A stretch of 64,000 nucleotides of DNA from Desulfomicrobium sp. (GTDB taxonomy: Bacteria > Desulfobacterota > Desulfovibrionia > Desulfovibrionales > Desulfomicrobiaceae), in NCBI GenBank assembly GCA_040768745.1, contig JAXGMI010000002.1:576001-640000 (forward strand), in the 5' to 3' direction. The notes beneath the pieces were generated by a model. That model was given only the letters and a program-made list of their open reading frames with translations, searched no databases and was not told the DNA's origin. Shown in pieces: positions 3,018 through 21,586 of the stretch. The first letter of the stretch is position 1, and each line of letters opens with the position of its first letter. The translations under genes and the position numbers were made by a program.

Positions 3018-3608
3018 TTGAGTTTCAACGGTGAAATCGTGGCAGGATCCCTGCTCATCCGCGAAAGTAGAAGTGTCGCCGAGCTGCTACTCCTTGGGCT
3101 TGGCCCGAAGGCCGTGCATGAACGCGTGAGCGCGGACAACAGCCTTCAGAAGCGTTCACCCGCCACGGCCAGACGTCAGACGAACCTCATCCTGGCGCGG
3201 TTGCAGGGCTTGGACAAAAGGTTTCTGACCATGATCGTTTCCGGCTCGCAGGAACTCGCCACGCAAGCTCTTTTCGCCGCTGCCATCAAGCATAACCGTT
3301 TCCTGGGGGACTTCGTCGGCAAGGTGGTTTGCGCTCATTGGCGAACTTACAAACCCGCCTTGACCAAGCTCGATTGGAATTCTTTTTTTGAGGAATGCGC
3401 AGCAATCGACCCTGAGATCACCAAGTGGACGGAAACAACCCACGCTAAAATCCGTCAGGTCGTCTTCCGTATTTTAGCCGAAGCGAAAGTGATCGAATCG
3501 ACAAGATCCCTCCGGCTGATCCCTTTTGCGCTCCTGCCGGAACTCAAGCGTCTCCTTCGAGACAAGGACGAATGGTATGTCCTCAGGTGTCTGGAGGCTC
3601 TCTCATGA
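3018..3608 (+). CDS. brxA: BREX protein BrxA (DUF1819)
   Basis: GEIVAGSLLIRESR, NSLQKRSPATARRQ, WTETT.AKIRQVVFRILAEA; TTG start after GAGGAG; first gene of the cluster. Confidence 0.9.
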   Translation: MSFNGEIVAGSLLIRESRSVAELLLLGLGPKAVHERVSADNSLQKRSPATARRQTNLILARLQGLDKRFLTMIVSGSQELATQALFAAAIKHNRFLGDFVGKVVCAHWRTYKPALTKLDWNSFFEECAAIDPEITKWTETTHAKIRQVVFRILAEAKVIESTRSLRLIPFALLPELKRLLRDKDEWYVLRCLEALS

Positions 3609-4192
3609 ACGATGATTTCAACGGTCGCCTGAATAAAGTCCTCGACCGGCTCCTTTCCAAGGAACTGTTGTCGAATACTGGGCTTGGCAACGAGATCGGC
3701 TTCTATATCTTCGACTACCCACCGGAGCAGGAACTCCGACTCAGGGAGTTTCTTGAAACAATCAAAGCGCAACTTATGAAACGCGCACCCGATCTTCGGT
3801 TTGTCCACATCAATCTGTTCAAGCTGCTCATCGACTACCTGGCTGAGCGCAAACTTCTGGACCGCGCCTACCAATTGCAAAAAACCAAGGGCGACGAAGA
3901 ACTGCTCAAAGCCCTCAAAGGTCCGCTCCAGGAAAAACGCGTAGCCGAATATTTCGTCCAAGCCGCACGACCTGAGGTCAACGACCTGGTCCTTGTCTCA
4001 GGCGTCGGCAATGCCTGGCCCATGCTCCGCAGTCATACCCTGCTCAATTGCCTGCACGCATACATGGAGGACACGCCTCTGGTCCTCTTCTATCCGGGAC
4101 AATATTCCGGCCAGAGCTTGCGCCTCTTTGGCAAGCTGCCTGAGAGCAACTACTATCGCGCATTTTCTCTCGTTCCTCATCAAGCTTCCTAG
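3605..4192 (+). CDS. brxB: BREX protein BrxB (DUF1788)
   Basis: GLGNEIGFYIFDYPP, GVGNAWPMLRSHTLLN, LFYPGQYSGQSL.LFG..NYYRAF; ATGA overlap with brxA. Confidence 0.92.
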   Translation: MNDDFNGRLNKVLDRLLSKELLSNTGLGNEIGFYIFDYPPEQELRLREFLETIKAQLMKRAPDLRFVHINLFKLLIDYLAERKLLDRAYQLQKTKGDEELLKALKGPLQEKRVAEYFVQAARPEVNDLVLVSGVGNAWPMLRSHTLLNCLHAYMEDTPLVLFYPGQYSGQSLRLFGKLPESNYYRAFSLVPHQAS

Positions 4193-4208
4193 TCACGGAG
4201 AACCCAGA

Positions 4209-7200
4209 ATGCTGATCAAGGATCTGTTCGCAAAAAATCTGTTCCGCCCCATCAACGGCGTCGTCAAAGCCGAACAGCAGGAAGATGCCGTCGTATGGCA
4301 GGAACTGGAAGAGTATGTTCTCACCAAGGAACTCGACCAGCATTTCCGCAAGTTCTTTGACGCCTATCAGGCCGCTCGACGCAACGCTCATGATCCGAGC
4401 CTTTCCGACAGAATGGGCATCTGGGTCTCCGGCTTCTTCGGGTCGGGCAAGTCGCACTTCATCAAGATCCTGTCCTATCTGCTGAACAACCGGGAAGCCT
4501 GTAACCCCCAAACTTCGGAATGCAGACGGGCCGCAAAGTTCTTCGAGGGTAAAATCAAGGACCCGCTGCTGCTCGCGGATATCAAAAGCGCGACAAACGG
4601 AAATACCGATGTCATCCTTTTCAATATCGACAGCCGCGCCGATGCCCAGGATGGGCGAGGAACCATTCTCTCGGTGTTCTGGCGTGTGTTTAACGAGATG
4701 CAAGGGTTCTGCGGCGAGTATCCGCATTTGGCGGAGATGGAACGCTACCTGACCAGCAAGGGCAAATTCGAGGAGTTCTGCACCACATACTCGGAACTCA
4801 GCGGCGAGGACTGGATCAAGGAGCGTGACGCGTTCCACTTCAAAAAAGACGAGGTGGTTGAAGCGCTCTCCAAAACTTTGGGCCAGAGCCTCACATCGAC
4901 CGAATCATGGTTCGACAAGTCGGAGAACTCTGTCAGCCTGACCATCGACGCCTTCGCAAAACGGGTAAAGGAATACCTCGACAGTCGAGGCAAGGATCAC
5001 CGCATCGTCTTTCTGGTGGACGAAGTCGGCCAGTTCATCGGCAACGACACGCACCTCATGCTCAACCTGCAAACCATCACTGAAGACCTGGGCCGCGTTT
5101 GCCAGGGCCGGGCTTGGGTTGTCGTCACGTCACAGGAAGACATCGACGCCATCCTGGGCGACCTTGTCGCCTCGAAAGCCAATGACTTTTCCAAAATCCA
5201 GGGACGGTTCAGCACGCGTCTGTCTCTCTCCAGTTCCAACACCGACGAAGTCATCCAGGCCCGTCTGCTGGAAAAGAAATCAGCGGCACAAGAAGAGCTG
5301 CAACGGCTCTTTGACGTGAAAGGCGACATCATCAACAGCCAGCTCAGCTTCTCGCACGACAGCGCCCACCTCAAAACCTATCGGGACAGAGTCGATTTCG
5401 CGGGATGCTATCCCTTTGCGCCCTACCATTTCCAGTTGGTGCAGAAGATTTTTGAATCCATCCGCAAGGCCGGAGCCACGGGCATTCATTTGAGTCGTGG
5501 CGAGCGTTCCATGCTGGATGCCTTTCAGTCCGCAGCCATCAATGTGGCGGAAAAGGAAATCGGAGCTTTGATTCCCCTGCATGCCTTTTACCCATCCATC
5601 GAAAGTTTTCTGGATACTGCGGTCAAGCGCACTATCGAGCAGGCGGATGAAAACAGCGGACTGGAAAAACCGTTCGACATTCAGCTTCTGAAAACATTGT
5701 TTCTGATCCGCTATGTGGATGTCATCAAACCCAACGTCGACAACCTGGTGACCCTGTTCATCGATGAGGTCGATGCCGACCGTCTGGCGTTGAAACGTCG
5801 CATCGAAGCTGGCTTGCAGCGTCTGGAAAAAGAAACCCTGATCAACCGCAACGGTGATCTGTACTTCTTCCTGACCAACGAGGAGCGCGACGTCGGACGC
5901 GAAATCAAGAATGTCGATATCACCAGTTCCGAAGAATTGAAGCTTTTGTCCGACATCATCTTTGCCGAAATCTTCAAGGATCAGAACAAACTCAAATATC
6001 GCCCCTACAAGCGCGATTACGCCTTTGGTCGTCTTCTGGACGGGCACCCCTACAGCAGCAAGGTCGATCAGGACATTGCCGTGGAGATCATCTCTCCGCT
6101 CAATGACCAGTATGCCCTCTTCAATTCCATGAAATGCGTCCTTTATTCAGGGGAACATCCTGGACGGATTGTGTACAAGCTGTCGGATGACAAGGCCCTT
6201 GGAAATGAAATCCGGGCCTACCTTCAGACCGACAAATATGTGCGCCTCAAAAGCGATGCTTCGTTGACCCCCAACTTCAAAAAAATTCTCCGTGATCGTC
6301 AGGAAGAGAACCGTGAACGTCGGGAGCGTTTGACCTCCTTGGTGGAAAATCTGCTGTGCTCAGCCAAGGTCTATGCCTTGCAGCAGGAATTGCAGCTCAA
6401 AAATTCCGGAGCCAAGGCGGGCTTGGATGAAGCCCTGGAATATGTCATCCAGAACGTCTTTCTGAAATTTTCCTACCTGGAAGTCGTGTACGATGATCCC
6501 ACCAAGGAACTTCGCGCCGTCCTGCTTTCCAATGATATTGCCAAAAATCAGCTTCAGATGGACCTGCCGCAAATCAACGCCCAGGCCGTCAAGGAAGTGC
6601 GGGAACATGTCGACATCCTAACCGCGAAAAATCACGCCATCCTGCTCTCCGACATGGTCGAGAAGTTCAGTGCCAAGCCGTATGGCTGGCCGGAATGGGA
6701 GGTCGTGCTGCTGGCTGCCCGGTTGTTCATGGCTGGTGAAATCAAGCTGACCGTCAACGACGTCCTGGAGCCACGCGAAGCCCTGGATGTGCTGATGAAA
6801 ACCACGCAGTGGCGCAGCGTGAAAATGGTCAAATGCAAGCTGGCCAGCCCGGAAGAAATCGAAAAGGCCCGCAAGCTCTGTCAGGATCTGTTCGGCAAGA
6901 TCGGTCCGGAATCCGGCGAGGCTCTGGTTGCGCACTTCAAAGAGCAGTTACAGGCTTGGCGCAGGCAATTGGGACAGTTCCGACCCCTGGCGCAAACGGG
7001 CCAGTACCCGGGGGCGTCAATCATCGATCGGGCGCTTGGAGTGATCGAAGGCATCCTGACGATCCGCGACAGCTACGAGTGCATCATCGCGTTCAACAGA
7101 AAGAAAAATGACTTGCTGGATGCTGGTGACGACATCCATGAACTGAGCGGCTTTTACGCAAATCAGAAGCCCACTTGGGACAAGCTGCGCCAAAGCCTGC

Positions 7201-7763
7201 GCATCTTCAACATCAACGCGGCAGCCTTGAATAAAAATGCCGATGCCGCCCAGGCTCTGAAGCGTTTGCAGGAGATTGCCGCGCATGACGCACCCTATGG
7301 CATGATCAAGGATATCGACGCCCTCATTGGCAGGGTGGCAGCCGTCAACGACGTCATGGTTGCGGAAGCCCGGCAGGCCTCGCAAGCGGTCCTCGATGAT
7401 CGCATACAGGCCATGAGTACCGCCTTGGATGGTTTGAACGCATCGTCGGATGACCGCAACCGCATTCTGTATCCACTCGAGACCATCAAACAGACGATCT
7501 CCGCCGAAGAAAGCATTCCGGCCCTGTTCTACCAGCGCGAAGAAAGCGCCAAGGCCGTGGATACTGCCCTGGATAGCATCGAGGCCCTCAAGCCAACATC
7601 GGACACCCCCAAACCTCAGAAACAGACCAAAAGCCTGCGCGTTGCCTCGGTCACGACCAAGACCGTGCTGGAATCTGCCGCCGATGTGGAAGAATTTGTC
7701 GAGGCGCTCAAAAACCGCCTCCTAGCGGAACTCGGGCCGGATGTGCGTATTCGGGTGCAATAA
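4209..7763 (+). CDS. brxC: BREX P-loop ATPase BrxC
   Basis: WVSGFFGSGKSHFIK Walker A, FLVDEVGQF Walker B, VVTSQE, YPFAPY, PYGWPE. Confidence 0.95.
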   Translation: MLIKDLFAKNLFRPINGVVKAEQQEDAVVWQELEEYVLTKELDQHFRKFFDAYQAARRNAHDPSLSDRMGIWVSGFFGSGKSHFIKILSYLLNNREACNPQTSECRRAAKFFEGKIKDPLLLADIKSATNGNTDVILFNIDSRADAQDGRGTILSVFWRVFNEMQGFCGEYPHLAEMERYLTSKGKFEEFCTTYSELSGEDWIKERDAFHFKKDEVVEALSKTLGQSLTSTESWFDKSENSVSLTIDAFAKRVKEYLDSRGKDHRIVFLVDEVGQFIGNDTHLMLNLQTITEDLGRVCQGRAWVVVTSQEDIDAILGDLVASKANDFSKIQGRFSTRLSLSSSNTDEVIQARLLEKKSAAQEELQRLFDVKGDIINSQLSFSHDSAHLKTYRDRVDFAGCYPFAPYHFQLVQKIFESIRKAGATGIHLSRGERSMLDAFQSAAINVAEKEIGALIPLHAFYPSIESFLDTAVKRTIEQADENSGLEKPFDIQLLKTLFLIRYVDVIKPNVDNLVTLFIDEVDADRLALKRRIEAGLQRLEKETLINRNGDLYFFLTNEERDVGREIKNVDITSSEELKLLSDIIFAEIFKDQNKLKYRPYKRDYAFGRLLDGHPYSSKVDQDIAVEIISPLNDQYALFNSMKCVLYSGEHPGRIVYKLSDDKALGNEIRAYLQTDKYVRLKSDASLTPNFKKILRDRQEENRERRERLTSLVENLLCSAKVYALQQELQLKNSGAKAGLDEALEYVIQNVFLKFSYLEVVYDDPTKELRAVLLSNDIAKNQLQMDLPQINAQAVKEVREHVDILTAKNHAILLSDMVEKFSAKPYGWPEWEVVLLAARLFMAGEIKLTVNDVLEPREALDVLMKTTQWRSVKMVKCKLASPEEIEKARKLCQDLFGKIGPESGEALVAHFKEQLQAWRRQLGQFRPLAQTGQYPGASIIDRALGVIEGILTIRDSYECIIAFNRKKNDLLDAGDDIHELSGFYANQKPTWDKLRQSLRIFNINAAALNKNADAAQALKRLQEIAAHDAPYGMIKDIDALIGRVAAVNDVMVAEARQASQAVLDDRIQAMSTALDGLNASSDDRNRILYPLETIKQTISAEESIPALFYQREESAKAVDTALDSIEALKPTSDTPKPQKQTKSLRVASVTTKTVLESAADVEEFVEALKNRLLAELGPDVRIRVQ

Positions 7764-7993
7764 AAAAGCACACTAAGCTGGCGTGTTAAGTGTTTTTCTT
7801 ATCAAGGCCCGATTCATACGCGTTTTTTTAGAATGGTATGCGTTTTTTTTGACCCACCCGGAATGGAGTCTGTCTTTACCAGCGCGGCAAACATTGACAT
7901 GCCGGAACACATGAACTGTTATTTTTATTTGGTGCTCTTTTTGGAAATAACCATGCGGCGTATTTTCACAACTGCAAATAGGGAGCTTGGTTC

Positions 7994-9154
7994 ATGCAAC
8001 GCGGCGTGACCGGAAACTATCATACGACATCCGTTGCCGGCGAGGCCGTGCATGCCTTTGTGCCCGCTCCTCTGCCGCCCGAGCCTCCTCTGGAATGGGT
8101 GCAATCCCGGCAGCGTAGCCTGGAGCGGGCCTTGCTCGCCTGCGGTCGGCTCGATGCCATCACCGCCTTGCTCCCTGATCCGGATCTTTTTCTCTACGCC
8201 TACGTGCGCCGCGAAGCGGTGCTGTCCAGCCAGATTGAAGGCACGCAATCCTCCCTGTCCGACTTGCTGCTGTTTGAACTGGACGCTGCGCCCGGCGTGC
8301 CCTTTGATGATGTAGCCGAGGTTTCCAACTACGTCGCCGCCCTGGAACATGGTTTGACGCGCCTGCGTGAGGGTTTTCCTCTTTCCAACCGACTCATTCG
8401 GGAACTGCACGTGCGTTTGCTGTCCAGTGGGCGTGGAGCGCACAAGCAACCGGGCGAGTTTCGAAGAAGCCAGAACTGGATCGGCGGCACTCGGCCCGGC
8501 AATGCCCAGTTTGTTCCTCCTCCAGTGCAGGAGGTTGAGCCCTGTATGGCGGCACTGGAGCGTTTTCTGCACGATGACGAGGCTCCCGGCGCACTCGTCA
8601 AGGCCGCTCTTGCTCATCTCCAGTTTGAAACCATTCATCCGTTTTTGGATGGCAATGGCCGTGTCGGGAGACTTTTGATCGCGCTCATTCTCCACCATGA
8701 AGGGGTATTGCGCCAGCCGCTGTTGTACCTTTCACTCTATTTCAAGCAGCATCGCACCGAGTACTATCGACTGCTTGATACCGTGCGCCAGACAGGTGAC
8801 TGGGAATCCTGGATCGATTTTTTCCTTGAAGGGGTCGAGGTGACGGCAACCAGCGCCGTGGAGACCGCTCACCGCCTGCTTGGCCTGTTTGAACGCGACG
8901 CCATGCGCGTGCGCGGCCTGGGACGCTCCGCAGCCAACGCCTTGCGTGTCTTTGATATTCTTCGCGCCCGCCCCCTGGCTTCTATCGGACATTTGGCCCA
9001 GCAGGCGGGCATCAGCTTTGCCACGGCCGCCCGGCATGTCGAGGCTTTGGAGAAGCTCGATATCGTCCGCGAACTCAGCGGCCGCAGTCGTGAACGGGTT
9101 TTTGCCTATCAGGACTATATAAATATTATGAATGAAGGCGCGGAGCCCTTGTAG
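7994..9154 (+). CDS. Fic family protein (class II, N-terminal inhibitory helix, C-terminal HTH)
   Basis: Canonical HPFLDGNGRVGR motif; SSQIEG inhibitory motif; preceded by TTGACA (7894) and TGtTATTTT promoter-like elements. Confidence 0.93.
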   Translation: MQRGVTGNYHTTSVAGEAVHAFVPAPLPPEPPLEWVQSRQRSLERALLACGRLDAITALLPDPDLFLYAYVRREAVLSSQIEGTQSSLSDLLLFELDAAPGVPFDDVAEVSNYVAALEHGLTRLREGFPLSNRLIRELHVRLLSSGRGAHKQPGEFRRSQNWIGGTRPGNAQFVPPPVQEVEPCMAALERFLHDDEAPGALVKAALAHLQFETIHPFLDGNGRVGRLLIALILHHEGVLRQPLLYLSLYFKQHRTEYYRLLDTVRQTGDWESWIDFFLEGVEVTATSAVETAHRLLGLFERDAMRVRGLGRSAANALRVFDILRARPLASIGHLAQQAGISFATAARHVEALEKLDIVRELSGRSRERVFAYQDYINIMNEGAEPL

Positions 9155-9243
9155 ATACCGGACAGGAAACAGGGCAGAAAATATGCTCGTACTCAGAAAC
9201 CGCTGAACCTGAACCACATTCATCTTCAACCACTGTATACACC

Positions 9244-12200
9244 ATGAACAAAGCCGCTCTCAAATCATACGCTCCTGCCGCCCGTCTTGAATTCATCCAG
9301 GCCGTGACCGATCGTGCCAAGGCTCTGGGCCTGTCTGCCAAAGCCATAGAACCCGCTGAAGTCAAAGGCGACGTAGCCATTATTGCAGGGCAGGCTTTTC
9401 CAAAGGCCGTGGCCGAACGACGCGCCGAGCTGGAACGCCAGATCAGGATCAAAGGCTTTGAACAGCTCATGGAGGAAGTGGCCTACACGTGGTTCAACCG
9501 CTTTTGCGCCCTGCGCTTCATGGAAGTCCACGACTATCTGGACCATGGCTACCGAGTGCTCAGCAACCCCAGTGATTCGGATATCCCGGAAATTCTGGAA
9601 AAGGCCACCAGCGTGGATTTGCCGGGGTTGGACAAAGGACTGGTGGCGGACTTGCGGTTGGCCGGGAACAAGGATGCGGAGTTATACCGAGTGCTGCTCA
9701 TGGCTCAGTGCAACGCCCTGCATAAAGTCATGCCCATGCTGTTCGAGAAGGTCGGTGACGCAACGGAACTGTTACTGCCGGAGAACCTGCTGCAAACCAA
9801 TTCGCCCGTTCGCAAGCTGGTGGCGGCGATCCCGGAAGAGGACTGGCAGGAGATCGAAATCTTGGGCTGGCTCTATCAGTTCTACATTTCCGAGAAAAAG
9901 GATCAGGTCATCGGCAAGGTGGTCAAAAGCGAGGACATCCCCGCCGCCACCCAGCTTTTCACGCCCAACTGGATCGTCAAATACATGGTTCAGAACACCT
10001 TGGGTCGGACTTGGATGATGACCTACTCCAGCTCCAATCTCAAAAACGACATGGAGTTTTACATCACCCCGGCGGAACAGACGCCTGAGGTGCAAGCGCA
10101 GTTGGAAGCCATCACGCCCAAAGAACTAAACCCGGAAGAGTTGACCCTGCTCGATCCGGCCTGCGGGTCCGGTCATATTCTGGTGGAAGCCTATGACCTG
10201 TTCAAGGCCATCTATCTGGAACGTGGCTACCGGCCTCGGGATATTCCGCGCCTGATACTGGAAAAGAACCTCTTTGGATTGGATATTGATGACCGTGCCG
10301 TACAACTGGCCCGGTTTGCCCTGCTTATGAAGGCCAGAAGTGATGACCGGCGTATACTGGATGCGGACAATCCGGTGCGGCTCAATGTGCTTGCCTTTCA
10401 GAATAGCAAAGGCCTGGATATCGAACAGATCACCACGACCTTGCTCAAGGAACGGACCAAGTCTTTGACTGGCGGACAGCACCAGCTTTCTTTCGTGCCG
10501 CAACCAACCCGGCAACTACCTCTGACCACCACCGAGAAGCCGGAGGTTGCGCCGGAGGAACTGTACGCCCTCCTGTATGTCTTTGAGCACGCCAAAACCT
10601 TTGGCTCACTGCTGCGTATCAACGACAAGCTGAAAGCAGCTTTGCCGCGCCTGGAAAAACTGCTGGAGAGGGCGGGGCGATCTGATGGCATGTCCTCCAT
10701 GTATGCGGGAATGCTCATGCCGTTGCTGCGGCAGGCTCAGTTGCTAGCGAGGATGTATGATTGTGTAGTGGCGAATCCTCCGTACATGGGCAGCAAGGGG
10801 CAGAACCCAGCCCTCAAAACATACGCCAAAGATTATTTTCCAGGCAGTAAGGCGGATTTGTTTGCCATGTTTATGGAACGCGGGCTGGAGTTGCTTACAC
10901 AGCAGGGGTTAGCGGGGCTAATCACAATGCAAAGCTGGATGTTCTTGTCATCTTATGAAGATTTACGAGTAACAATATTAAGCAATAGGACGATTTTGTC
11001 CATGCTACATCTTGGCGCAAGAGGTTTTGACAGCATTGGCGGCGAAGTTGTTCAAACCACATCTTTTATTGTAAGTGCAGCAAATATAAATCCTTATAAA
11101 GGATTGTATTATAGATTAACAGACGGAAAGTCTGAAGCGGAAAAAGTTGTGGAGCTTCACAAAAACAAGACGATACGATACACCGCTTCGGCTGCTGATT
11201 TTTCGAAAATACCAGGAAGCCCGATTGCGTACTGGTTGCCTAGAGCTGCATTTATGGCATTAGAGAAAACCACTCTTCTCGGAGAAATCAGTTCACCCAG
11301 AAAAGGGATGTGCACTAGAGATAATGACTATTTTGTTCGTTTCTGGCATGAAGTTGATTACAATAATATTGGCTTCAATTGCAATTCTAGAAATGAAGCA
11401 CAAGAAACAAAAAAAAGATGGTTTACTTATCAAAAAGGCGGAGAATATAGACAATGGTACGGCAATCATCGACATGTAGTTGATTGGGAGAATGATGGAT
11501 ATAGGCTTCTAAATATGGAGAGGCTTGGCTGGAAAGGAAATTCAACAAACCATAATATGGACTATATATTTAAACCAGCAATCGTCTGGTCGAAAATCAC
11601 ATCTGCCATACCTAATTTTAGATACTCAACAAGTGGATTTCTTTTTGATGACGCATCTGGAATGTGCGCGCTAAATGACGAAGCAAACACTAACGCTGTT
11701 CTTGGCTTCTTATGCAGTAGAGTTGGACAATACTATATGAATATATTAAATCCAACGCTAAACATACAACCAGGAAACATGTGTTCAATGCCGTATATGG
11801 AGCCTTCAGAACTTGCAGACATAGAAAGAATCATTGATATCTCAAGAACAGATTGGAATTTTTTCGAAATTTCGTGGGATTTCCAAAACAACGCTCTAAT
11901 TAACAATGAATCTCGGCGTGACCGTCTTTCCAGTTCATATGATTCATATTCTTACACCTGCAAAGATTTAGTCGAAGAAATGGAGGAACTTGAAAAGCAG
12001 AATAATCAGCTTTTTATTGAATCCTATGGGCTTGGAAGCGAACTATCTAGCAATCCAAGCAGGTCTGAAATATCAATCAATTGCAATCACGCATACCGCT
12101 TTAGTGGAGAACATAACGATCTAGAAAACCTGTTTCGCTCTGAAACAATACAGGAGCTCATCTCCTACGCCATTGGCTGCATGATGGGCCGCTACAGTCT

Positions 12201-12891
12201 TGATGAATCGGGCCTGATCTACGCCCATGCCGGGAACGAAGGCTTTGATCCAAGCCGTTACGCCACCTTCCCGGCTGACGAAGATGGCATCATCCCGGTC
12301 ATGGATGGCGAATGGTTTGACGATGACGCCACGGTTCGTTTTGTGGATTTTGTGCGTACGGTCTGGCCTGCCGAGACCCTGGACGAAAATCTCAAATTCG
12401 TGGCCGACAGCCTGGACCCGAAAAAGAGCGAAACCCCGGTGGAGACCATCCGCCGTTTCATCAGCACAAAATTTTTTAAAGACCACCACCTCAAGGTCTA
12501 CAAAAAACGCCCCATCTACTGGCTCTTTTCCAGCGGCAAACACAAGGCCTTCGAGTGCCTCGTCTACCTGCACCGCTACAACGAAAACACCCTGCCGCGT
12601 ATGCGAGCCATGTACGTTACTCCGCTGCAAGGCAAGTTCAACGCCCGCATCGAATACCTGAAAAAGGAAATCGACGCCGCCCCATCCACTGCCGCCCGCA
12701 AACAATTGCAAAAGGAACTGGATACCATGACCAAAAAGCAGCAGGAACTGCGCACGTTTGATGAACTCCTGCGCCACTACGCCGATCAGCGTATCACCCT
12801 GGACCTGGATGACGGAGTGAAGGTTAACTACGGAAAGTTTGGTGGGCTGTTGGCGGAAGTGAAGGCGATAACGGGTGGGAGTGAGGACTAA
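9244..12891 (+). CDS. pglX: BREX adenine methyltransferase PglX (BrxX)
   Basis: IPAATQLFTPNWIV, DPACGSGHIL (motif I), NPPY (motif IV), C-terminal YKKRPIYWLFSSG..LDLDDGVKVNYGKF. Confidence 0.95.
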   Translation: MNKAALKSYAPAARLEFIQAVTDRAKALGLSAKAIEPAEVKGDVAIIAGQAFPKAVAERRAELERQIRIKGFEQLMEEVAYTWFNRFCALRFMEVHDYLDHGYRVLSNPSDSDIPEILEKATSVDLPGLDKGLVADLRLAGNKDAELYRVLLMAQCNALHKVMPMLFEKVGDATELLLPENLLQTNSPVRKLVAAIPEEDWQEIEILGWLYQFYISEKKDQVIGKVVKSEDIPAATQLFTPNWIVKYMVQNTLGRTWMMTYSSSNLKNDMEFYITPAEQTPEVQAQLEAITPKELNPEELTLLDPACGSGHILVEAYDLFKAIYLERGYRPRDIPRLILEKNLFGLDIDDRAVQLARFALLMKARSDDRRILDADNPVRLNVLAFQNSKGLDIEQITTTLLKERTKSLTGGQHQLSFVPQPTRQLPLTTTEKPEVAPEELYALLYVFEHAKTFGSLLRINDKLKAALPRLEKLLERAGRSDGMSSMYAGMLMPLLRQAQLLARMYDCVVANPPYMGSKGQNPALKTYAKDYFPGSKADLFAMFMERGLELLTQQGLAGLITMQSWMFLSSYEDLRVTILSNRTILSMLHLGARGFDSIGGEVVQTTSFIVSAANINPYKGLYYRLTDGKSEAEKVVELHKNKTIRYTASAADFSKIPGSPIAYWLPRAAFMALEKTTLLGEISSPRKGMCTRDNDYFVRFWHEVDYNNIGFNCNSRNEAQETKKRWFTYQKGGEYRQWYGNHRHVVDWENDGYRLLNMERLGWKGNSTNHNMDYIFKPAIVWSKITSAIPNFRYSTSGFLFDDASGMCALNDEANTNAVLGFLCSRVGQYYMNILNPTLNIQPGNMCSMPYMEPSELADIERIIDISRTDWNFFEISWDFQNNALINNESRRDRLSSSYDSYSYTCKDLVEEMEELEKQNNQLFIESYGLGSELSSNPSRSEISINCNHAYRFSGEHNDLENLFRSETIQELISYAIGCMMGRYSLDESGLIYAHAGNEGFDPSRYATFPADEDGIIPVMDGEWFDDDATVRFVDFVRTVWPAETLDENLKFVADSLDPKKSETPVETIRRFISTKFFKDHHLKVYKKRPIYWLFSSGKHKAFECLVYLHRYNENTLPRMRAMYVTPLQGKFNARIEYLKKEIDAAPSTAARKQLQKELDTMTKKQQELRTFDELLRHYADQRITLDLDDGVKVNYGKFGGLLAEVKAITGGSED

Positions 12892-12899
12892 GAAGTAAT

Positions 12900-13370
12900 A
12901 TGACAGAATATAAGGATTTCTATAAAATTTTTGCAGAAAGGACCAAAGCGAATCTTGAATTCATCGAGCAATCCAAGTCCAGTGGTGAAAGCGTTTTTGA
13001 AACAACGCAACTGATCAATTCTTTGCTTGGTATGATTGTTTTTCTTCGTGAAAGCGATCGAATAAATGGATCAATATTAGACAAAAAATGGAAAATTATT
13101 CAATATAAAGAAATCCAAGATCACCACAATTACTGCAAAAAATTCTCAAATTTTATAAGAAAATTCCGTAACGCATTAGCACATGGACATATTGATCCGC
13201 AAATAGATGAAAATCAGGAAGTATCTAAATTCATTTTATGGGATGAGTGTAGATGCGGAAACCTTGACTGGAAAATCGAAATAGACTTGGAGAATATCAA
13301 AAAACTGGCCTATTTCATTCAAGAAAACATGCATCAATTTCCAAGACCTCGACCAGAGAGACGAAGATAA
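12900..13370 (+). CDS. HEPN-domain putative RNase (resembles pEK499_p136-type HEPN)
   Basis: FAERTKANL...ETTQLINSLLGMIVF and RNALAH (Rx4H) motif; strongly AT-rich; tightly coupled to pglX and pglZ. Confidence 0.75.
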   Translation: MTEYKDFYKIFAERTKANLEFIEQSKSSGESVFETTQLINSLLGMIVFLRESDRINGSILDKKWKIIQYKEIQDHHNYCKKFSNFIRKFRNALAHGHIDPQIDENQEVSKFILWDECRCGNLDWKIEIDLENIKKLAYFIQENMHQFPRPRPERRR

Positions 13371-13376
13371 GCGTTT

Positions 13377-15989
13377 ATGGACACCCAACAGCTTACAACC
13401 AGCCTACACAAAATCTTCCATACCGAAGGCCACCGCATCGTCTTCTGGTACGACCCGAACGCGGAGTTTGCAGAAGAAATCCCATCACTCGCGCTAGACG
13501 GCGTAACCATCATCCAGATTCAGCAGGAAAGCGCTCTAGCCCTAAAGGTGCGCCTGGAGACCGAGGATCTGATCGGGAAATATCTTCTTTATGCACCTTC
13601 CCCGGAACCAGAACCAGAAGCTGACTGGTTGCTCGATATCCGCCTTTACAGCCGCACTTTCCACGCTGACCGTGCCTCCATTGTCATGAACGAGCTTGGC
13701 TTGACCAAGCAAACCATGCGCCAGCACGTCGCCTTGCGGAGCAAATTTTTCAACAGTCAGGACCGAATCAGCCGCCTCAAAAAGCTGATCGACGTAAACG
13801 ACCAGGAAAAAGACCTGGATCTTAAAATGTTGGCTGTCATCAGCCGGGCAGATCAACCGAGCGTTTTTGACATCCTGATGAAGTTGTTTGCCGGGATGTG
13901 TGCTGAGAGCGAAACAGAATATCAGCCCGTTCCTTCGGCATGGGAAGAAATTGAAAAATATGACCTAGCCCCTTTCTTCTGGGAGACGATGGGGCTGACC
14001 TTTGGATACACTGCATCCAACCCGACTCTTCTTGATCTGTTGATCCGCCTACTGGTTTCGGACTTTGCAAATACTCTCAAAACTGAGCCCCCCACCTCCC
14101 TTGAACACTTCCTGCTGCCGAACAAGTCGGTAGCGACCAATGCCTCAGTCTTCGTCTCGCAGTGGCGTAGCCATATGGGGCATTACCGGCAGTACGGGCA
14201 ACTTTCAGGCATCATTGCCGCTCAACTGGGCCTGGACAAGCTGTTGAGCGCTACCAGTTCCTTTGCCCTGACTCGGAGCATGACCTTCGAGGTTGTGGAG
14301 CGCCAGATCATCCGCTCCCTTCGTGACATGATCGTCAGCGAGGGAGCGGGCAACGCCGAGGAGTTGAAATCGCTCATCCTCAAGCGCAAGGATGGGCACT
14401 GGGCAAATATCAAGCTGCCAGGGTTTGAGGAGAACGTTTATGCCATTGCCTATCTGGCCATAGAAGCCGCGCTGGATCTTCTGGCCTTGCGCACCAAGTA
14501 CGACGAAGGCCTGAGCTACCCTTCGATACAGCGATTACACCGCGCTTACACGACGGAACTGTTCCGCTTTGACCAGCTCTATCGGCAGTTTCACGAGTAC
14601 GCAGACAAGGTTGAGCTGGCAGGTTGGGATGTGCTCAAGGAAATTCAAGGCGTCGTAGAGGCATGCTATAGCGGATGGTATCTGACACGGCTTGCCATCT
14701 GCTGGGACTCCTTCATGCTTGGCGCCGATGGCCTGCTAGCGAACTGGTCCGTGGAGAACGTGTTCAAGCAGCAGCATTTTCATTCGAACTTCGTAAAACC
14801 GATTCTTCGCACAAACCCCAAAAGCCGTGTTTTCGTCATTATCAGCGACGCCCTGCGCTACGAAGTTGCCGAGGAACTGACCCGCAGCATCAATTCCACA
14901 ACCCGCTTCAAGGCCAATCTGGACAGCCAGCTTGGCGTACTCCCCAGCTACACCGCCTTGGGCATGGCCGCCCTTCTTCCCCATGATCACTATGGATTCA
15001 AGGACGGGTCGGATCAGCTCGTGGTGGACGGGATGCCATGCGAGTCGTTTGGCCAGCGCAACGCCGTGCTGGCCAAACATGAAGGCATGGCATTGCGGGC
15101 CGGAGAGATCATGGCCATGAGCAAGGACCAGGGCCGCGAAGCCATCCGGCAGTCCCGCCTAGTGTACATTTATCACGATCAGATTGATTCCTGCGGGGAT
15201 CACGCCTCATCCGAAGGCACGACATTTCATGCCGCGCGGAAGGCCATCGAGGAACTGACGGCGCTGGTCAAATTCATCGTCAACAGCCTCAATGGCTCGC
15301 ATATCTTCGTCACCGCCGATCACGGCTTCCTCTATCAGGACCAGCCCCCCACGGTCCTGGAAAAAAGCGAACTTGATGTGAAACCCAAAGGCGCTCTCAA
15401 ATCCAAAAAACGCTACATTGTGGGCCAGGATATGGGCCAGACGGACAAAGCCTGGATTGGGACAACAGCCAATACTGCTGAAACGAACCCCGCTTTGGAC
15501 TTCTGGATACCCAAGGGCATCAACCGATTTCATTTTAGCGGCGGGGCCAGATTCGTGCACGGTGGAGCCATGCCGCAGGAAGTCATTGTGCCTGTCGTGC
15601 AGGTGCGGGAACTTGAAGGAAAGGCCGCCATCAAGGAAGCCGTGAAGCGGGTCGATGTCTCGATTCTCGGGTCAAACCGTAAGATCGTGAACACGCTTCA
15701 GAAGTTTGAATTCATCCAGGTCGAAAAAGTCACCGAACGTGCCCTGCCCCGTGTGCTGGTGTTCTCTCTGCGGGATGGGGACATGCTGATCAGCAACGAA
15801 GTGCTGGTCACTTTCGACTCTACGTCTGATTCCATGGAAGAACGCAAACGGCCCGTGAAACTCATGGTCAAAAAAGGTGCATACGACAAGGCCAGGGAAT
15901 ACGCCCTGGTTCTGCGTGACCCCGAAACCCAGATCGAGTACGACCGCATTCCAGTTACCATAGACTTGGCCTTCATCAACGATTTCTAA
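13377..15989 (+). CDS. pglZ: BREX phosphatase/phosphodiesterase PglZ (BrxZ)
   Basis: RIVFWYD, IISDALRYEVA, LPSYTALGMAALLP, TADHGF, FVHGGAMPQE. Confidence 0.95.
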   Translation: MDTQQLTTSLHKIFHTEGHRIVFWYDPNAEFAEEIPSLALDGVTIIQIQQESALALKVRLETEDLIGKYLLYAPSPEPEPEADWLLDIRLYSRTFHADRASIVMNELGLTKQTMRQHVALRSKFFNSQDRISRLKKLIDVNDQEKDLDLKMLAVISRADQPSVFDILMKLFAGMCAESETEYQPVPSAWEEIEKYDLAPFFWETMGLTFGYTASNPTLLDLLIRLLVSDFANTLKTEPPTSLEHFLLPNKSVATNASVFVSQWRSHMGHYRQYGQLSGIIAAQLGLDKLLSATSSFALTRSMTFEVVERQIIRSLRDMIVSEGAGNAEELKSLILKRKDGHWANIKLPGFEENVYAIAYLAIEAALDLLALRTKYDEGLSYPSIQRLHRAYTTELFRFDQLYRQFHEYADKVELAGWDVLKEIQGVVEACYSGWYLTRLAICWDSFMLGADGLLANWSVENVFKQQHFHSNFVKPILRTNPKSRVFVIISDALRYEVAEELTRSINSTTRFKANLDSQLGVLPSYTALGMAALLPHDHYGFKDGSDQLVVDGMPCESFGQRNAVLAKHEGMALRAGEIMAMSKDQGREAIRQSRLVYIYHDQIDSCGDHASSEGTTFHAARKAIEELTALVKFIVNSLNGSHIFVTADHGFLYQDQPPTVLEKSELDVKPKGALKSKKRYIVGQDMGQTDKAWIGTTANTAETNPALDFWIPKGINRFHFSGGARFVHGGAMPQEVIVPVVQVRELEGKAAIKEAVKRVDVSILGSNRKIVNTLQKFEFIQVEKVTERALPRVLVFSLRDGDMLISNEVLVTFDSTSDSMEERKRPVKLMVKKGAYDKAREYALVLRDPETQIEYDRIPVTIDLAFINDF

Positions 15990-16002
15990 GGATGTTGCTC
16001 GG

Positions 16003-18039
16003 ATGACTCAAGACAATACAGGTATCGACAGCCTTCTGAATACTGCCTTCCAAGGAAAAGTGGTCCGCAAGGATCTGACCAAGCTCTTGAAGGAAGGGGC
16101 CAATGTGCCTGTCTACGTTCTCGAATACCTGCTCGGAATGTACTGCGCCTCGGACGACGAGGAGATCATCCAGGAAGGTATCCAAAGTGTCAAAGACATC
16201 CTCTCCCAGAACTACGTTCGGCCCGATGAGGCGGAGAAGGTCAAGTCGATCATCAGGGAGCGTGGAAGCTTCAAAGTCATCGACAAGGTCACGGTCAAAC
16301 TCAACGAGCGCCGGGATTGCTACGAAGCCTTGCTCTCGAATCTTGGCGTTCAGGGTGTCGAGATTTCCAGCACCTTCGTGAAACAGTTCGAAAAGCTGCT
16401 CGTGGGCGGAATCTGGTGCATCATCTCCATCAATTATTATTTCGAGGAGGGACAAAAAGGGTCGCCGTTTTCCATCTCCGAACTCAAGCCGATCCAGATG
16501 CCTGGCATGGATATGGGAGAGTTCTACGAGGGGCGCAAGGCTTTCACAGAAGAGCAGTGGCTTGATGTCCTCATCCGTTCGACGGGCATGGAACCGACAG
16601 CCCTGGAGAACCGAACCAAATGGCACCTTTTGGTGCGGCTGATTCCGCTGGTCGAAAACAATTACAACGTCTGCGAACTCGGGCCGCGTGGCACCGGGAA
16701 AAGCCACGTGTACAAGGAGATCAGCCCGAACAGTATCCTTGTTTCCGGCGGGCAGACCACGGTTGCCAACCTGTTCTACAACATGAGTTCGCACAAGGTG
16801 GGCCTGGTCGGCGTTTGGGATGTGGTCGCTTTCGACGAGGTGGCCGGGATAAGCTTCAAGGACAAGGACGGCGTTCAGATCATGAAGGATTTCATGGCCT
16901 CTGGTTCATTTTCCAGGGGCCGCGATTCCATCAGTGCCAACGCGTCCATGGTCTTTGTGGGCAACATCAACCAGAGCGTGGATACGCTGGTCAAAACCAG
17001 CCACCTGTTCGCGCCCTTTCCAGAAGCCATGATCGACACGGCTTTTTTTGATCGCTTTCATTGCTATATCCCTGGCTGGGAAATCCCGAAGATGCGCCCG
17101 GAGTTTTTCACAAACCAGTACGGCTTCATCGTAGACTACATGGCTGAATTCTTCCGGGAGATGCGCAAGACGACCTATGCCGACGCCATCGACCGCTTTT
17201 TCTCACTCGGAAACAACCTCAATCAGCGCGACACCATCGGAGTCCGCAAGACGGTCTCAGGCCTGCTGAAGCTGCTCTACCCTCACGGAGACTTCGACAA
17301 GGAAGCCGTTGAACGCTGCCTGCGCTACGCGCTCGAAGGACGGCGCAGGGTCAAGGAGCAGCTCAAGAAATTGGGTGGGATGGAATTTTACGACGTTCAT
17401 TTCAGCTACATCGACAAAGAAAGCCGGGAAGAAAAGTTTGTTGGAGTACTGGAGCAGGGAGGAAGCTCTCTCATCCCTGAAGGTCCACTTAACCCCGGCA
17501 CCCTCCACACGGTAGGCGCGGGCTCCAATGGACACCTTGGGCTGTACCGTCTGGAATTGCAGGTCACCGCCGGAAACGGAAAGCTGTCAATATCAGGCGT
17601 AGGCACCAGCTCCATGGCCAAGGAACCGATCAAGGTCGCCTTCGACTACTTCAAAGCACACGCAGCCCGTGTCAGCGCTTCCGCCAAGCCGTCGGAGCGA
17701 GACTATCACCTGCACATTGTCGAACTGCACAATACCGGACCCACAGACTTGATGACACTCCCCTGCCTGGTGGCTTTCTGCTCAGGCCTCCTCGCGCGGC
17801 CCGTGCAAGGCAGCATGGTCATCCTCGGCAGCATGAGTTTAGGCGGCAGTATCGTCCCGGCAGCAAACCTGGCAGCGAGCCTTCAGGTTGCTTTTGATGC
17901 TGGAGCAAAGCGCATCCTGATACCCATGAGTAGTGTAACGGACATCCCGACGATTCCTGGGGAGTTGTTCGCGAAATTTCAGACGAGTTTTTATGCTGAC
18001 CCTGTAGATGCGGTATTTAAGGCGCTAGGGGTGGAATGA
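16003..18039 (+). CDS. brxL: BREX AAA+/Lon-like protein BrxL
   Basis: GKVVRKDLT, VPVYVLEYLLG.YC, ELGPRGTGKSH, VAFDEVAG, C-terminal Lon-like domain ending AVFKALGVE. Confidence 0.95.
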   Translation: MTQDNTGIDSLLNTAFQGKVVRKDLTKLLKEGANVPVYVLEYLLGMYCASDDEEIIQEGIQSVKDILSQNYVRPDEAEKVKSIIRERGSFKVIDKVTVKLNERRDCYEALLSNLGVQGVEISSTFVKQFEKLLVGGIWCIISINYYFEEGQKGSPFSISELKPIQMPGMDMGEFYEGRKAFTEEQWLDVLIRSTGMEPTALENRTKWHLLVRLIPLVENNYNVCELGPRGTGKSHVYKEISPNSILVSGGQTTVANLFYNMSSHKVGLVGVWDVVAFDEVAGISFKDKDGVQIMKDFMASGSFSRGRDSISANASMVFVGNINQSVDTLVKTSHLFAPFPEAMIDTAFFDRFHCYIPGWEIPKMRPEFFTNQYGFIVDYMAEFFREMRKTTYADAIDRFFSLGNNLNQRDTIGVRKTVSGLLKLLYPHGDFDKEAVERCLRYALEGRRRVKEQLKKLGGMEFYDVHFSYIDKESREEKFVGVLEQGGSSLIPEGPLNPGTLHTVGAGSNGHLGLYRLELQVTAGNGKLSISGVGTSSMAKEPIKVAFDYFKAHAARVSASAKPSERDYHLHIVELHNTGPTDLMTLPCLVAFCSGLLARPVQGSMVILGSMSLGGSIVPAANLAASLQVAFDAGAKRILIPMSSVTDIPTIPGELFAKFQTSFYADPVDAVFKALGVE

Positions 18040-18113
18040 GAAGAGGCATGAGACTTCAACAACAGAAAAGCCAATTCGCAGCGCCTTGAGGCGGCGCAGT
18101 GGGAGTGAACCTT

Positions 18114-18482
18114 ATGCGTATCGCAGTCATCATCCTGGTTGTCTTCCTGGCCCAGGCCGCCTTGGCCGGCTCCTGGGAGGAACAACCCTACAAGAAGAGT
18201 TTCGCCAAGGAGCACCATGGTCGGGTGGACGCCTCTGTGCGCGGCGGACGCAAGGTCGACGTTCTGACCCGCAAACACGCCGTGGAGTTTGAAAAGGCCC
18301 GCAACTGGGACAAGGCCATTGAAAAGAGCCTGGAAAACTCCAACAGGTCCGGTAAGAAGGCGGGCATCGCCATCATCAAGGAAGGAAATTCCCTGGATGA
18401 CTACCGTGTCCGGCAACTCAAGCGGGAGATCAGGCAGCGGGACCTGGACATCGAGGTCTGGGAGATGGAAGAAGAGGACTGA
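18114..18482 (+). CDS. Secreted protein with PD-(D/E)xK-like motif
   Basis: Signal peptide MRIAVIILVVFLAQAALA; RKVDVLT..HAVEFEK..W.KAI...GKKAGIAII. Confidence 0.6.
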   Translation: MRIAVIILVVFLAQAALAGSWEEQPYKKSFAKEHHGRVDASVRGGRKVDVLTRKHAVEFEKARNWDKAIEKSLENSNRSGKKAGIAIIKEGNSLDDYRVRQLKREIRQRDLDIEVWEMEEED

Positions 18483-18712: not shown

Positions 18713-20185
18713 TCAGGCTCCCCAGATGGATTCGAACAAGACCGGATCACTCATCACCCCCGTAAGCGTGATGGGATCTTCGAACACATAGTCGATGACC
18801 GCCTCAGCTTTGGACTGCGTCACCGCATCCCCGGTGACCCGCTCCAGCAGATCGTTGATGCTGGCATCAAACCCTTCCTCCAGCTGCACCGACAGCCTGT
18901 TCACATAGTGCAAAGCCACTTCGTGCTTGTGGGTCAGCAGACTGCGATCCTCATCGCCGCTGGTCGGCGCATAGGCACCCAGGATCAGCTCGCCCACAAA
19001 GGACCCGCGATCGTTCAGATCCGTCGAACCCAAGGCATCCAACCGCTGGGTCCAGTAGTCCCATCCGCCCGTGTCCGGATCGCGGTCAAAGCAGTTCTGG
19101 TAAATGGCCTTGACGAACTCCCGGTTGCTGTCATCCTGCGGAAAAAGGCGCTGGGCCTCCACACTCCACGCGAAGTCCTTGGAGATAGTGGCGAAATCCC
19201 GCCCTCTTTCCAGGAGCTGCTCCTGCCAGAACTCCAGGCCTGAAACATCGGGGGCCCGGCCGAAGAAGGCCAGGTAGAGATCAGTCAGGTGGTCAAGCTG
19301 CTGCTTTGCACTTCCCGAAACCAGATCTCCAACAGGAATAGTGGTCTGGAATGTACTCCCAAACGTCGCCAGTTCCACATCTTCAAGGGTCAGACTGTAA
19401 CCTGCGTAGGTCCCCCTGATTCTCCCCGGAGCTTCCTGGGCCAGGGAATACACGTTGGGAAACATGGGCAGGATGACGGTGTCAATGCCCGCCTCGTCGA
19501 CCACGGTATCAGTTTGAGCAAAGCTGGCGATCAAGATGTCGTTATCCGATGTACCGTTGAGCATTCCACCATCGTCAAGTATCGGGGACTTGACTGTTCG
19601 ATCCGCGAACAACAGAGATTCGACGCTGATCAAGGTATCGCTGACCCCGTTGCCCTCCACCATGATAATGCCATCCTGAGCCATGGATATGGTGTAGAGT
19701 GAAATCTCACCAATGTAGCCGGCCGTGTCGGTGCCGTCCCCTCCATCGATCACATTGATCCCTTCACCGCCAGAAAGGACGTCATCGCCCATCCCACCGT
19801 TGAGGATGTCATCGCCTGTATATGTGTCGAAAAACCAACCTGATGTGCTCAAATCATTGTAGATATCGTTGCCTCCAACAAGATTGTCTATTAACCCGAA
19901 GAAAAAGTCGTATTCGCTCGTTTCGAGCATGGCTGCAAATTCACTTAAACTCAAATAAAAGTCCTCTATTCTTCCTACAGCATTCCCATTGTAGCTAACA
20001 TCTAGTCTGTTGATTACTCCACCATACGAATTAAAATCGAAACCATAAATCTCTACTGTGCACAAACCAAATTTAAAAGAAATATATGTTTGATTTTTTG
20101 ATATTAATTCTGCTTCATTTTCTTCAATTTCCAATAATATTGAATCCAATACTTCCATTGATGCATACGTCGTTATTGTACTCAT
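18713..20185 (-). CDS. DUF4214-domain protein with RTX-like Ca-binding repeats (surface/T1SS-type)
   Basis: GGMGDDVLSGGEGINVIDGGDGTD repeats; YLAFFGRAPDVSGLEFW and YQNCFDRDPDTGGWDYW DUF4214-like units; no signal peptide. Confidence 0.8.
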   Translation of the reverse strand: MSTITTYASMEVLDSILLEIEENEAELISKNQTYISFKFGLCTVEIYGFDFNSYGGVINRLDVSYNGNAVGRIEDFYLSLSEFAAMLETSEYDFFFGLIDNLVGGNDIYNDLSTSGWFFDTYTGDDILNGGMGDDVLSGGEGINVIDGGDGTDTAGYIGEISLYTISMAQDGIIMVEGNGVSDTLISVESLLFADRTVKSPILDDGGMLNGTSDNDILIASFAQTDTVVDEAGIDTVILPMFPNVYSLAQEAPGRIRGTYAGYSLTLEDVELATFGSTFQTTIPVGDLVSGSAKQQLDHLTDLYLAFFGRAPDVSGLEFWQEQLLERGRDFATISKDFAWSVEAQRLFPQDDSNREFVKAIYQNCFDRDPDTGGWDYWTQRLDALGSTDLNDRGSFVGELILGAYAPTSGDEDRSLLTHKHEVALHYVNRLSVQLEEGFDASINDLLERVTGDAVTQSKAEAVIDYVFEDPITLTGVMSDPVLFESIWGA

Positions 20186-20335
20186 GATATTTTTCCTCTA
20201 AACTTTAAAATAAATAAAAACAAATTTTATATTTGAAAAAACTTTTAACCACTTATAAATTCGTTTTATTTATCATATTATATTGGATATAATTTGCGAA
20301 TTGCTTTGCACAAAAGAGCTTTACATAGGTAATTT

Positions 20336-20596
20336 ACTCGACTTTCGGGGTTGTTAGTAAAGTCGCCGAAACAGAAATCTATCGAGAATAATTGAATATT
20401 TTGATTGAGGGGATCCTCCTTCTGTAGTAGTTCTTTTGTTACCACGCAACAGAACACAAAAAAAGGAATCCCCGCATGCAAACTACAAACAATGCCATCG
20501 ATTTGCAACTCATTAAAAACGAGTGTGAGAGCAGAATCGATTCGTTTTTCAGTCAGTTCGGAATTGCGACCATTGCGCGTAATTCAAGCATCAAGA
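20336..20596 (+). mobile_element. Left end of an IS4-like element with transposase N-terminal fragment (ORF 20476-20622)
   Basis: Terminal repeat ACTCGACTTTCGGGGTT at 20336; RBS and ATG 20476 give MQTTNNAIDLQLIKNECESRIDSFFSQFGIATIARNSSIK, cut at the second repeat copy. Confidence 0.6.
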
Positions 20597-21427: not shown

Positions 21428-21509
21428 TTACAGGTGGGATACGGTGCGGGGACGGAATCAGGGCCAGAAAAAAGGAGTCAGGTTTTTATGCCTAACTCCT
21501 TGATTTCTA

Positions 21510-21586
21510 TGGTGCGCAATGCAAGAATCGAACTTGCGGCCTTTAGCTCCGGAGGCTAACGCTCTATCCAACTGAGCTAATTGCGC
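21510..21586 (-). tRNA. tRNA-Arg(CCG)
   Basis: GCGCAATTAGCTCAGTTGGATAGAGCGTTAGCCTCCGGAGCTAAAGGCCGCAAGTTCGATTCTTGCATTGCGCACCA; terminator hairpin at ~21468-21501. Confidence 0.95.

Follow-up and report, generated by a model that had tools for sequence, protein, structure and literature searches.

A type 1 BREX locus of Desulfomicrobium carries a Fic and a HEPN gene that are probably separate passengers

Introduction

Genes inserted between the core components of bacteriophage exclusion (BREX) loci are common: in the survey of Kelly et al. (PMC11341690), they are reported from about 7000 of some 9000 BREX genomes, and about 5000 of the roughly 7000 inserts matched no known system. One such locus lies in a 64,000-nucleotide stretch of DNA from Desulfomicrobium sp. 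(assembly GCA_040768745.1, contig JAXGMI010000002.1, positions 576,001 to 640,000 of the forward strand; hereafter the window). Here, a Fic gene and a HEPN gene stand on either side of pglX, and a first-pass annotation proposed that the two might form a second, abortive-infection layer guarding BREX. Do they constitute one such layer, or did they arrive, and do they act, separately?

The comparisons described below favor, with a probability of about 0.62, two separately acquired passengers in variable junctions of an intact type 1 BREX locus, each a stand-alone abortive-infection backup, with no joint guard. The two genes are read as standing alone because the precedents BrxU and BxaP are independent of their host BREX, because the junctions hold different cargo in close relatives and Fic and HEPN were not found together in other BREX loci, because the Fic family is huge and the PglX type rare and fic has its own predicted promoter-operator, and because a HEPN allele appears to have been swapped in one relative and an open HEPN frame survives in a BREX relic.

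An intact type 1 BREX locus with two inserted genes

The locus is a type 1 BREX locus, with the six core genes in canonical order and with intact ATPase, methyltransferase and PglZ motifs. Together with the inserts, the order at 3018-18039 is brxA-brxB-brxC-fic-pglX-hepn-pglZ-brxL, as the first-pass annotation had read it, with all eight open reading frames (ORFs) on the + strand and no internal stops; the six core proteins pass their family cut-offs. The brxC-pglX junction is referred to below as slot 1, and the pglX-pglZ junction as slot 2.

3018..3608, + strand: brxA (Pfam BrxA, E 4e-50, above cut-off; PADLOC BrxA)
3605..4192, + strand: brxB (Pfam BrxB, E 1.3e-40, above cut-off)
4209..7763, + strand: brxC, P-loop ATPase (NCBIfam NF033441, 1231.6 bits, cut-off 400; Walker A and B)
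7894..7969, + strand: predicted promoter and operator of fic (three-box motif, from an alignment of fic upstream regions)
7994..9154, + strand: fic, predicted class II Fic AMPylase with a C-terminal winged helix-turn-helix (HTH), SoFic/CccR-like, passenger in slot 1 (Pfam Fic_N, Fic and HTH)
9244..12891, + strand: pglX, type 1 methyltransferase (NF033452, 1454.1 bits, cut-off 500)
12900..13370, + strand: hepn, predicted pEK499_p136 ribonuclease, passenger in slot 2 (PF18736)
13377..15989, + strand: pglZ, type A (TIGR02687, 923.3 bits, cut-off 270.35)
16003..18039, + strand: brxL (TIGR02653, 1187.7 bits, cut-off 628.25)

The motifs comprise GFFGSGKS and LVDE in BrxC, DPACGSG and NPPY in PglX, DALR, TADHG and HGG in PglZ, and GPRGTGKS in BrxL. 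The gaps around the inserts measure 230 bases (brxC-fic), 89 bases (fic-pglX), 8 bases (pglX-hepn) and 6 bases (hepn-pglZ). GC content is 59.8% in fic, 33.5% in hepn and 49-55% in the core genes, and the two inserts are therefore unlike each other in composition. All eight genes are single-copy in the genome (E 1e-4). The centre of pglX (~10800-12150) has a low GC content of 35-44%, and the protein is there 31-54% identical to two close relatives (31-46% over residues 601-900), compared with 86-100% at its ends; judging from these identities, an exchange of the specificity domain relative to those relatives is likely.

The same six core genes in the same order are found in E. fergusonii pEFER (PMC8565348) and Salmonella D23580 (PMC11341690), and slot 1 is the position filled in pEFER by BrxU, which is reported to act independently of its host BREX (PMC8565348). 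Unlike in those two loci, the cargo of the window consists of Fic and a pEK499_p136 HEPN, and no ORF of WYL/BrxR size lies ahead of brxA.

The junctions hold different cargo in other BREX loci

Slot 1 was inspected in 15 other loci, seven from genomes or metagenomes and eight plasmid records picked among the best DNA matches, with kin among the loci that are not independent of one another. Ten of these slots are empty and five hold other cargo (GmrSD/HEC-05; PDC-M25AB; Xre-RES; an HTH protein; DUF4351 with VapBC), so that Fic occurs in 0/15. The HEPN profile likewise matched 0/13 BREX loci chosen without regard to HEPN, one of which (L283) stops short of pglZ. The BREX locus of a congener (G419), whose PglZ and BrxL proteins are 94% and 98% identical to those of the window, has slot 1 filled by a GmrSD/HEC-05 (BrxU-like) gene. 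Its slot 2 contains an unknown ORF and a weakly AbiU2-like gene, and a sacsin-domain gene and an SNF2 helicase come ahead of brxL; the congener's own Fic, 61% identical, is on a different contig. Over the stretch from late pglX via HEPN to brxL, the DNA of locus L028 is 92% identical to that of the window, yet the brxC of L028 is joined straight to pglX. L028 and L033 are the two HEPN-sharing loci in which the brxC-pglX junction is visible, and Fic is present in 0/2; no other BREX locus examined has Fic and HEPN together.

Within the phylum, this PglX type occurs in 5/401 genomes and the Fic family in 112/401, and in the only other genome with both, more than 1.2 Mb separates them. A search with the brxC-fic-pglX junction DNA of 387 plasmid records and 398 E. 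coli genomes located no site at which 80% of the query was covered, among the matches listed (best 40 and best 30), a weak search in that the brxC DNA was unaligned in those matches.

Unclassified BREX cargo at L020:15463-16677 consists of a weakly AbiU2-like 211-residue gene and a 154-residue ORF; slot 2 of L022/L023 has a 252-residue ORF ahead of a Schlafen gene; and in L153 (G206:C3:950001-960000) a complete BREX locus is followed directly by scattered fragments of brxB, brxC, pglX, pglZ, brxL and brxA, a decayed second copy.

The Fic gene belongs to a very large family and has its own predicted operator

The predicted active site of Fic, HPFLDGNGRVGR, contains H215, R223 and R226 of the HPFxDGNGRxxR motif, which is kept in 55/56 homologues. 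An N-terminal inhibitory motif, SSQIEG (E82), which fits the pattern (S/T)xxIE(G/N), marks the protein as class II, and Pfam places a winged HTH at residues ~312-360. The PADLOC run that had been proposed with the first-pass annotation matched BrxA and, at 407.5 bits (E 1.5e-122), SoFic, and PADLOC has no model for this HEPN. Against the NCBIfam SoFic model (NF046030), Fic scores 154.7 bits, under the cut-off of 550, which leaves it outside SoFic in the strict (equivalog) sense; its nearest solved chains are SoFic proteins (best 136 bits). The family is very common, with 7957/8000 scored candidates at E<=1e-100. Its closest named relatives are from Tepidiphilus (81-82% identity), and the copies of the congeners are 59-61% identical and located elsewhere. 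No type 1 BREX genes were found next to Fic homologues in 29 + 26 genome loci or in 80 viral loci. The 89-base gap between fic and pglX is too short for a 47-residue AS1-type ORF, and the one + strand ORF seen there has 24 codons and overlaps the end of fic.

Upstream of fic lie a TTGACA box (7894-7899), an extended -10-like element (TGTTATTTT, 7917-7925) and a site resembling a ribosome-binding site (7980-7985). Two inverted boxes (7918-7924 and 7945-7951) and a third half-site (7960-7969) accompany them, and the resulting three-box motif (TATT, inverted AATA, TATT) spans 7920-7964 over the promoter-like site. This motif occurs in 46/66 fic upstream regions, with 0.18 expected from shuffles. 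In a quick tree of 67 rows, Fic falls in a 13-row sub-clade with a Shimodaira-Hasegawa-like approximate likelihood ratio test (SH-aLRT) value of 98; 11/13 of its members, from which the pattern was taken, have the motif, as do 35/53 of the others, compared with 0.17 expected from base shuffles. The loose form of the pattern has 21 occurrences genome-wide. A generic promoter and terminator scan performed at chance (13 vs 9.9; 18 vs 19.3), and the predicted fic promoter was not among its calls. As a side observation, the operator-like motif is spread through the very large Fic-HTH family, beyond the sub-clade (L115-L179, L270-L278).

CccR, a class II Fic protein with an HTH, is reported to repress the promoter of its own gene by way of an inverted box pair with a 26-base spacing (PMC9755527), and SoFic is reported to bind its own upstream 100 bases and to AMPylate EF-Tu (10.64898/2026.07.09.737422). 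The window protein resembles both in being a class II Fic with an N-terminal inhibitory motif and a C-terminal winged HTH, and a box pair similar to that of CccR lies upstream of its gene; to SoFic, it is only a distant relative. By analogy with CccR and SoFic, we infer that Fic regulates itself through its own operator. Should the promoter prove real, Fic bound there could in addition alter how much transcription reads through into pglX.

Several members of the sub-clade sit among methylation-defence genes. The order hsdM-fic-hsdS occurs in L120 and L154, and also in L270, where 1.4 kb separates hsdM from fic; L116 reads fic-brxF-brxC (type 3 BREX), L119 hsdM-like-fic-DUF499, and L118 hsdM fragment-fic-type III Mod. 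The hsdM matches in L115 and L117 are short fragments. Among new sub-clade members from Pseudomonadota, 1/3 has such a context, and a viral copy outside the tree (L208, 59%) also has hsdM nearby. Pfam scans of Fic flanks outside the branch found no methylation-defence neighbours; one of these scans took 82/92 frames, and the 10 dropped came from near-duplicate loci. Upstream of the window fic, no remnant of hsdM was found.

By eye, the bases just ahead of the operator in L115-L120, L154 and L270 resemble the last codons of hsdM, and this resemblance is seen even next to type 3 BREX or housekeeping genes. The pattern suggests that the ancestral junction may have been hsdM-fic. Separately, L279 (G1118:C1:672000-690000) is a type I restriction-modification operon in which Fic, a Kiwa B-like gene and an ABC-type ATPase are nested.

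The HEPN lineage is tied to the pglZ junction

HEPN belongs to the Pfam family PF18736, pEK499_p136 (83.3 bits, cut-off 26.6), with no other Pfam domain at E<=0.1; the protein consists of this one bare domain (156 residues) and lacks a sensor ATPase. Its RNALAH motif is intact (R90, H95), so that both inserts retain the catalytic motifs of the toxin types to which the first-pass annotation had assigned them. R90, N91 and H95 are invariant in 17 aligned homologues, and an R-x4-H-type motif is kept in 79/82. The predicted model has a mean confidence (pLDDT) of 72.7. Its best fold match (Z 6.7) is within noise, as are the longer matches to Csm6 (Z 6.0 over 91 residues) and LAS1L (Z 5.8 over 82). 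A profile search found no relative among solved structures, and no plasmid matched HEPN. Neither Fic nor HEPN matched an ATPase family in Pfam or PADLOC, so that the ABC-ATPase sensor of PARIS- and PrrC-type systems was found with neither. A complex prediction for two HEPN chains with PglZ 1-690 scored 0.01 against a mark of 0.32, which is no evidence either way.

The HEPN family is rare here, being found in 5/401 genomes of the phylum and numbering 22 proteins out of 32 candidates. In the best 80 of 96 metagenome loci, HEPN occupies the pglX-pglZ slot in five (L028, L029, L030, L033, L034). In a sixth (L038:194-760), an open HEPN frame precedes just the initial 20 codons of pglZ, after which an unrelated gene comes; no end of pglX lies in the 193 bases upstream, on a contig of only 1233 bases. 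The first-pass annotation had looked to recurrence at BREX slots as the check on both inserts: HEPN does recur, in the five further loci and the relic, and Fic, with 0/15, does not. When the downstream DNA was scored against the PglZ N-terminus, the six pglZ-linked loci reached 72-153 and the other 74 loci at most 27, 63 of these 74 having at least 150 bases downstream. No type 1 BREX genes accompany HEPN in four other matches in the phylum, two genome-collection loci or nine viral loci.

The seven pglZ-linked HEPNs, window included, form one branch in an 80-row quick tree from which three short rows were dropped (SH-aLRT 93), and again in careful trees of 33 chosen rows (83/90) and 20 chosen rows (89/83); the support is moderate. 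The L029 PglZ is 93% identical to that of the window and its HEPN only 39%; the latter is 60-62% identical to the L033 and L034 HEPNs. An approximately unbiased (AU) test rejects a grouping of the window, L028 and L029 HEPNs (p-AU 0.02), the grouping having been chosen after the first tree. HEPN alleles thus appear to have been swapped between BREX backbones, and together, the branch, the PglZ and HEPN identities and the AU test indicate a HEPN lineage tied to the pglZ junction, with alleles seemingly exchanged.

A proposed mechanism for two stand-alone passengers

By analogy with studied type 1 BREX systems, PglX would methylate host sites and the complex would block replication of unmethylated phage DNA. 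HEPN would be co-transcribed with pglX and pglZ, given the 8- and 6-base gaps. Dimer chemistry is familiar from HEPN proteins, and the R-x4-H site would cut RNA, probably in this form, so that the infected cell is halted. The gene appears to pass from one BREX backbone to another by recombination in its conserved flanks, the 3' part of pglX and the 5' part of pglZ. Fic would have arrived later, its own promoter aboard, and may repress that promoter through the winged HTH. The predicted inhibitory glutamate E82 would keep the enzyme quiet; once released, it would AMPylate an essential host protein, the targets of distant relatives being EF-Tu and FtsZ.

Weighing the alternatives

Several points weigh against two passengers that act on their own. 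All 7/7 branch HEPNs of known context directly precede the start of pglZ, compared with 0/74 of the other loci. Across PglZ proteins that are 49-95% identical, so strict a placement goes beyond what random lodging would give and suits a functional tie. In the Fic sub-clade, 9/13 members (window included) lie within 1.5 kb of hsdM, hsdS, hsdR, Mod or BrxC-like genes, compared with 0/54 outside it, a count for which the probes were drawn from six of the loci counted and in which 14/67 loci have fewer than 800 bases on one side; Fic is thus not indifferent to its context. Furthermore, HEPN is accompanied by no antitoxin gene that could keep it quiet. Finally, judged by sequence, neither insert is orthologous to a tested defence protein, with Fic under the SoFic cut-off and HEPN lacking a PADLOC model.

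The placement of HEPN before pglZ, in a branch recovered in three trees, would suit a dedicated PrrC-like guard that the BREX complex holds inactive and that phage inhibition, through an Ocr-type mimic or S-adenosylmethionine (SAM) depletion, frees to cut host RNA, with Fic as unrelated cargo. The missing antitoxin and the translational-coupling distances would fit such an arrangement, and PrrC and PARIS are reported precedents (PMC10799925, 10.1101/2024.01.29.577857). However, near-identical PglZ proteins are paired with HEPN alleles only 38-39% alike, none of the BREX loci chosen independently carries HEPN, the open frame in L038 persists beside a 20-codon pglZ remnant (with the short contig in mind), the bare domain has no sensor, the branch support is under the starred level, and a single insertion followed by homologous exchange accounts for the linkage without function; we regard this guard as unlikely. 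More speculative still is a pair of guard lineages, in which the pglZ-bound, sensorless HEPN branch would fire when the BREX complex is blocked, and the self-repressing Fic sub-clade would follow defences built on SAM-dependent DNA methylation (restriction-modification of types I and III, type 1 and type 3 BREX, and BREX-related systems) and fire on anti-restriction proteins such as DNA mimics.

That the two genes form one co-evolved second layer flanking and guarding PglX, as the first-pass annotation had it, is very improbable. In its favor, the two genes stand on either side of pglX, share a strand and have their motifs intact, and in L052/L053 a HEPN of this family lies 4 kb from a distant Fic (35%), without BREX. 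Yet the lack of Fic in both L028 and L033, and the count of 0/15 for slot 1, largely refute the joint layer by non-recurrence, and the GC contents (60% vs 34%), the separate Fic promoter-operator and the differing contexts of the two sub-clades point the same way. At the opposite extreme, one or both inserts could be selfish or near-neutral lodgers in a tolerant, often-exchanged operon, giving no phage protection, with Fic perhaps serving stress-linked translation control. The Fic family is mostly found next to housekeeping or mobile genes, with its own expression signals; most surveyed BREX inserts match no known system; and PARIS embedded in Salmonella BREX is reported to be inactive against all phages tested (PMC11341690). 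Conversely, the catalytic motifs are retained in nearly all homologues of both proteins, and both sub-clades are enriched inside defence operons. Protection by relatives is also reported: E. coli SoFic is toxic and defends against T5 (PMC12249575; 10.1101/2022.05.11.491447), HEC-08 protects against phage and needs its R-x4-6-H histidine (10.1101/2024.01.29.577857), and BxaP, a rare HEPN-superfamily gene in BREX and restriction-modification loci, protects independently, likely by abortive infection (PMC10799925). We therefore doubt that the inserts are mere lodgers and retain two stand-alone backups as the preferred reading.

Relation to described systems

The first-pass annotation had ranked the locus as its best candidate for an undescribed system, which the literature does not bear out. 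Anantharaman et al. (2013; PMC3710099) describe pEK499_p136 members embedded in Pgl operons (PglZ, PglY, PglX, Lon-type ATPase) that could induce cell suicide, a 2026 survey counts HEPN among BREX 'backup suicidal effectors' (PMC12839542), and an Ocr-triggered guard is already published as PARIS. The window HEPN shares the Pfam family, host operon and proposed cell-suicide role of those proteins. The pglZ-linked sub-branch and the allele swapping do not appear in the relevant passages of the two papers; the supplement of the 2026 survey may list these loci. BxaP differs in being a DUF4145 protein of type 3 BREX, the window HEPN matching PF18736 only and lying in type 1 BREX. The literature search found no experiment on the pEK499_p136 family, and no paper describing a Fic gene within BREX or a Fic that acts as a guard, a supplementary figure of PMC11341690 being outside the search. 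'Fic' is absent from the main text of the 2026 survey (PMC12839542), and PMC9881135 already lists, in a row of one table, a type I operon with a Fic gene within it. The theme of the locus is thus already published (cargo-bearing BREX, HEPN in Pgl/BREX operons, BxaP, PARIS), and it is no new two-toxin system.

Surroundings of the locus

Neither target-site nor terminal repeats were conspicuous around fic or hepn. Ahead of the locus, a 25-base inverted repeat (2366-2420) at the start of a divergent regulator-like gene (1760-2374) is a likely operator. Right after brxL lies a 127-residue ORF (18099-18482) with a hydrophobic N-terminus, single-copy and with no Pfam or PADLOC match. Positions 18713-21586 hold a DUF4214/RTX-repeat gene, an IS4-family transposase and a tRNA-Arg gene; the transposase covers only the C-terminal part of its model and has 97-99% copies elsewhere in the genome. 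The 3' end of the tRNA-Arg gene has no duplicate in the genome, and no attachment-site copy was found.

Implications

The locus adds one example of a cargo-bearing BREX system, together with two modest additions: a pglZ-linked HEPN branch, and a Fic sub-clade that is enriched beside DNA-methylation defences and has a conserved operator. If blocking the host system proved to trigger either gene, this would reveal how infection can be sensed by a bare HEPN domain or by a SoFic-type enzyme, whose activation is left open in the SoFic papers, as far as PMC12249575 indicates. Should the pair of guard lineages prove true, Fic would guard methylation-based immunity in general, by AMPylation, and would supply the missing trigger of SoFic-type defence.

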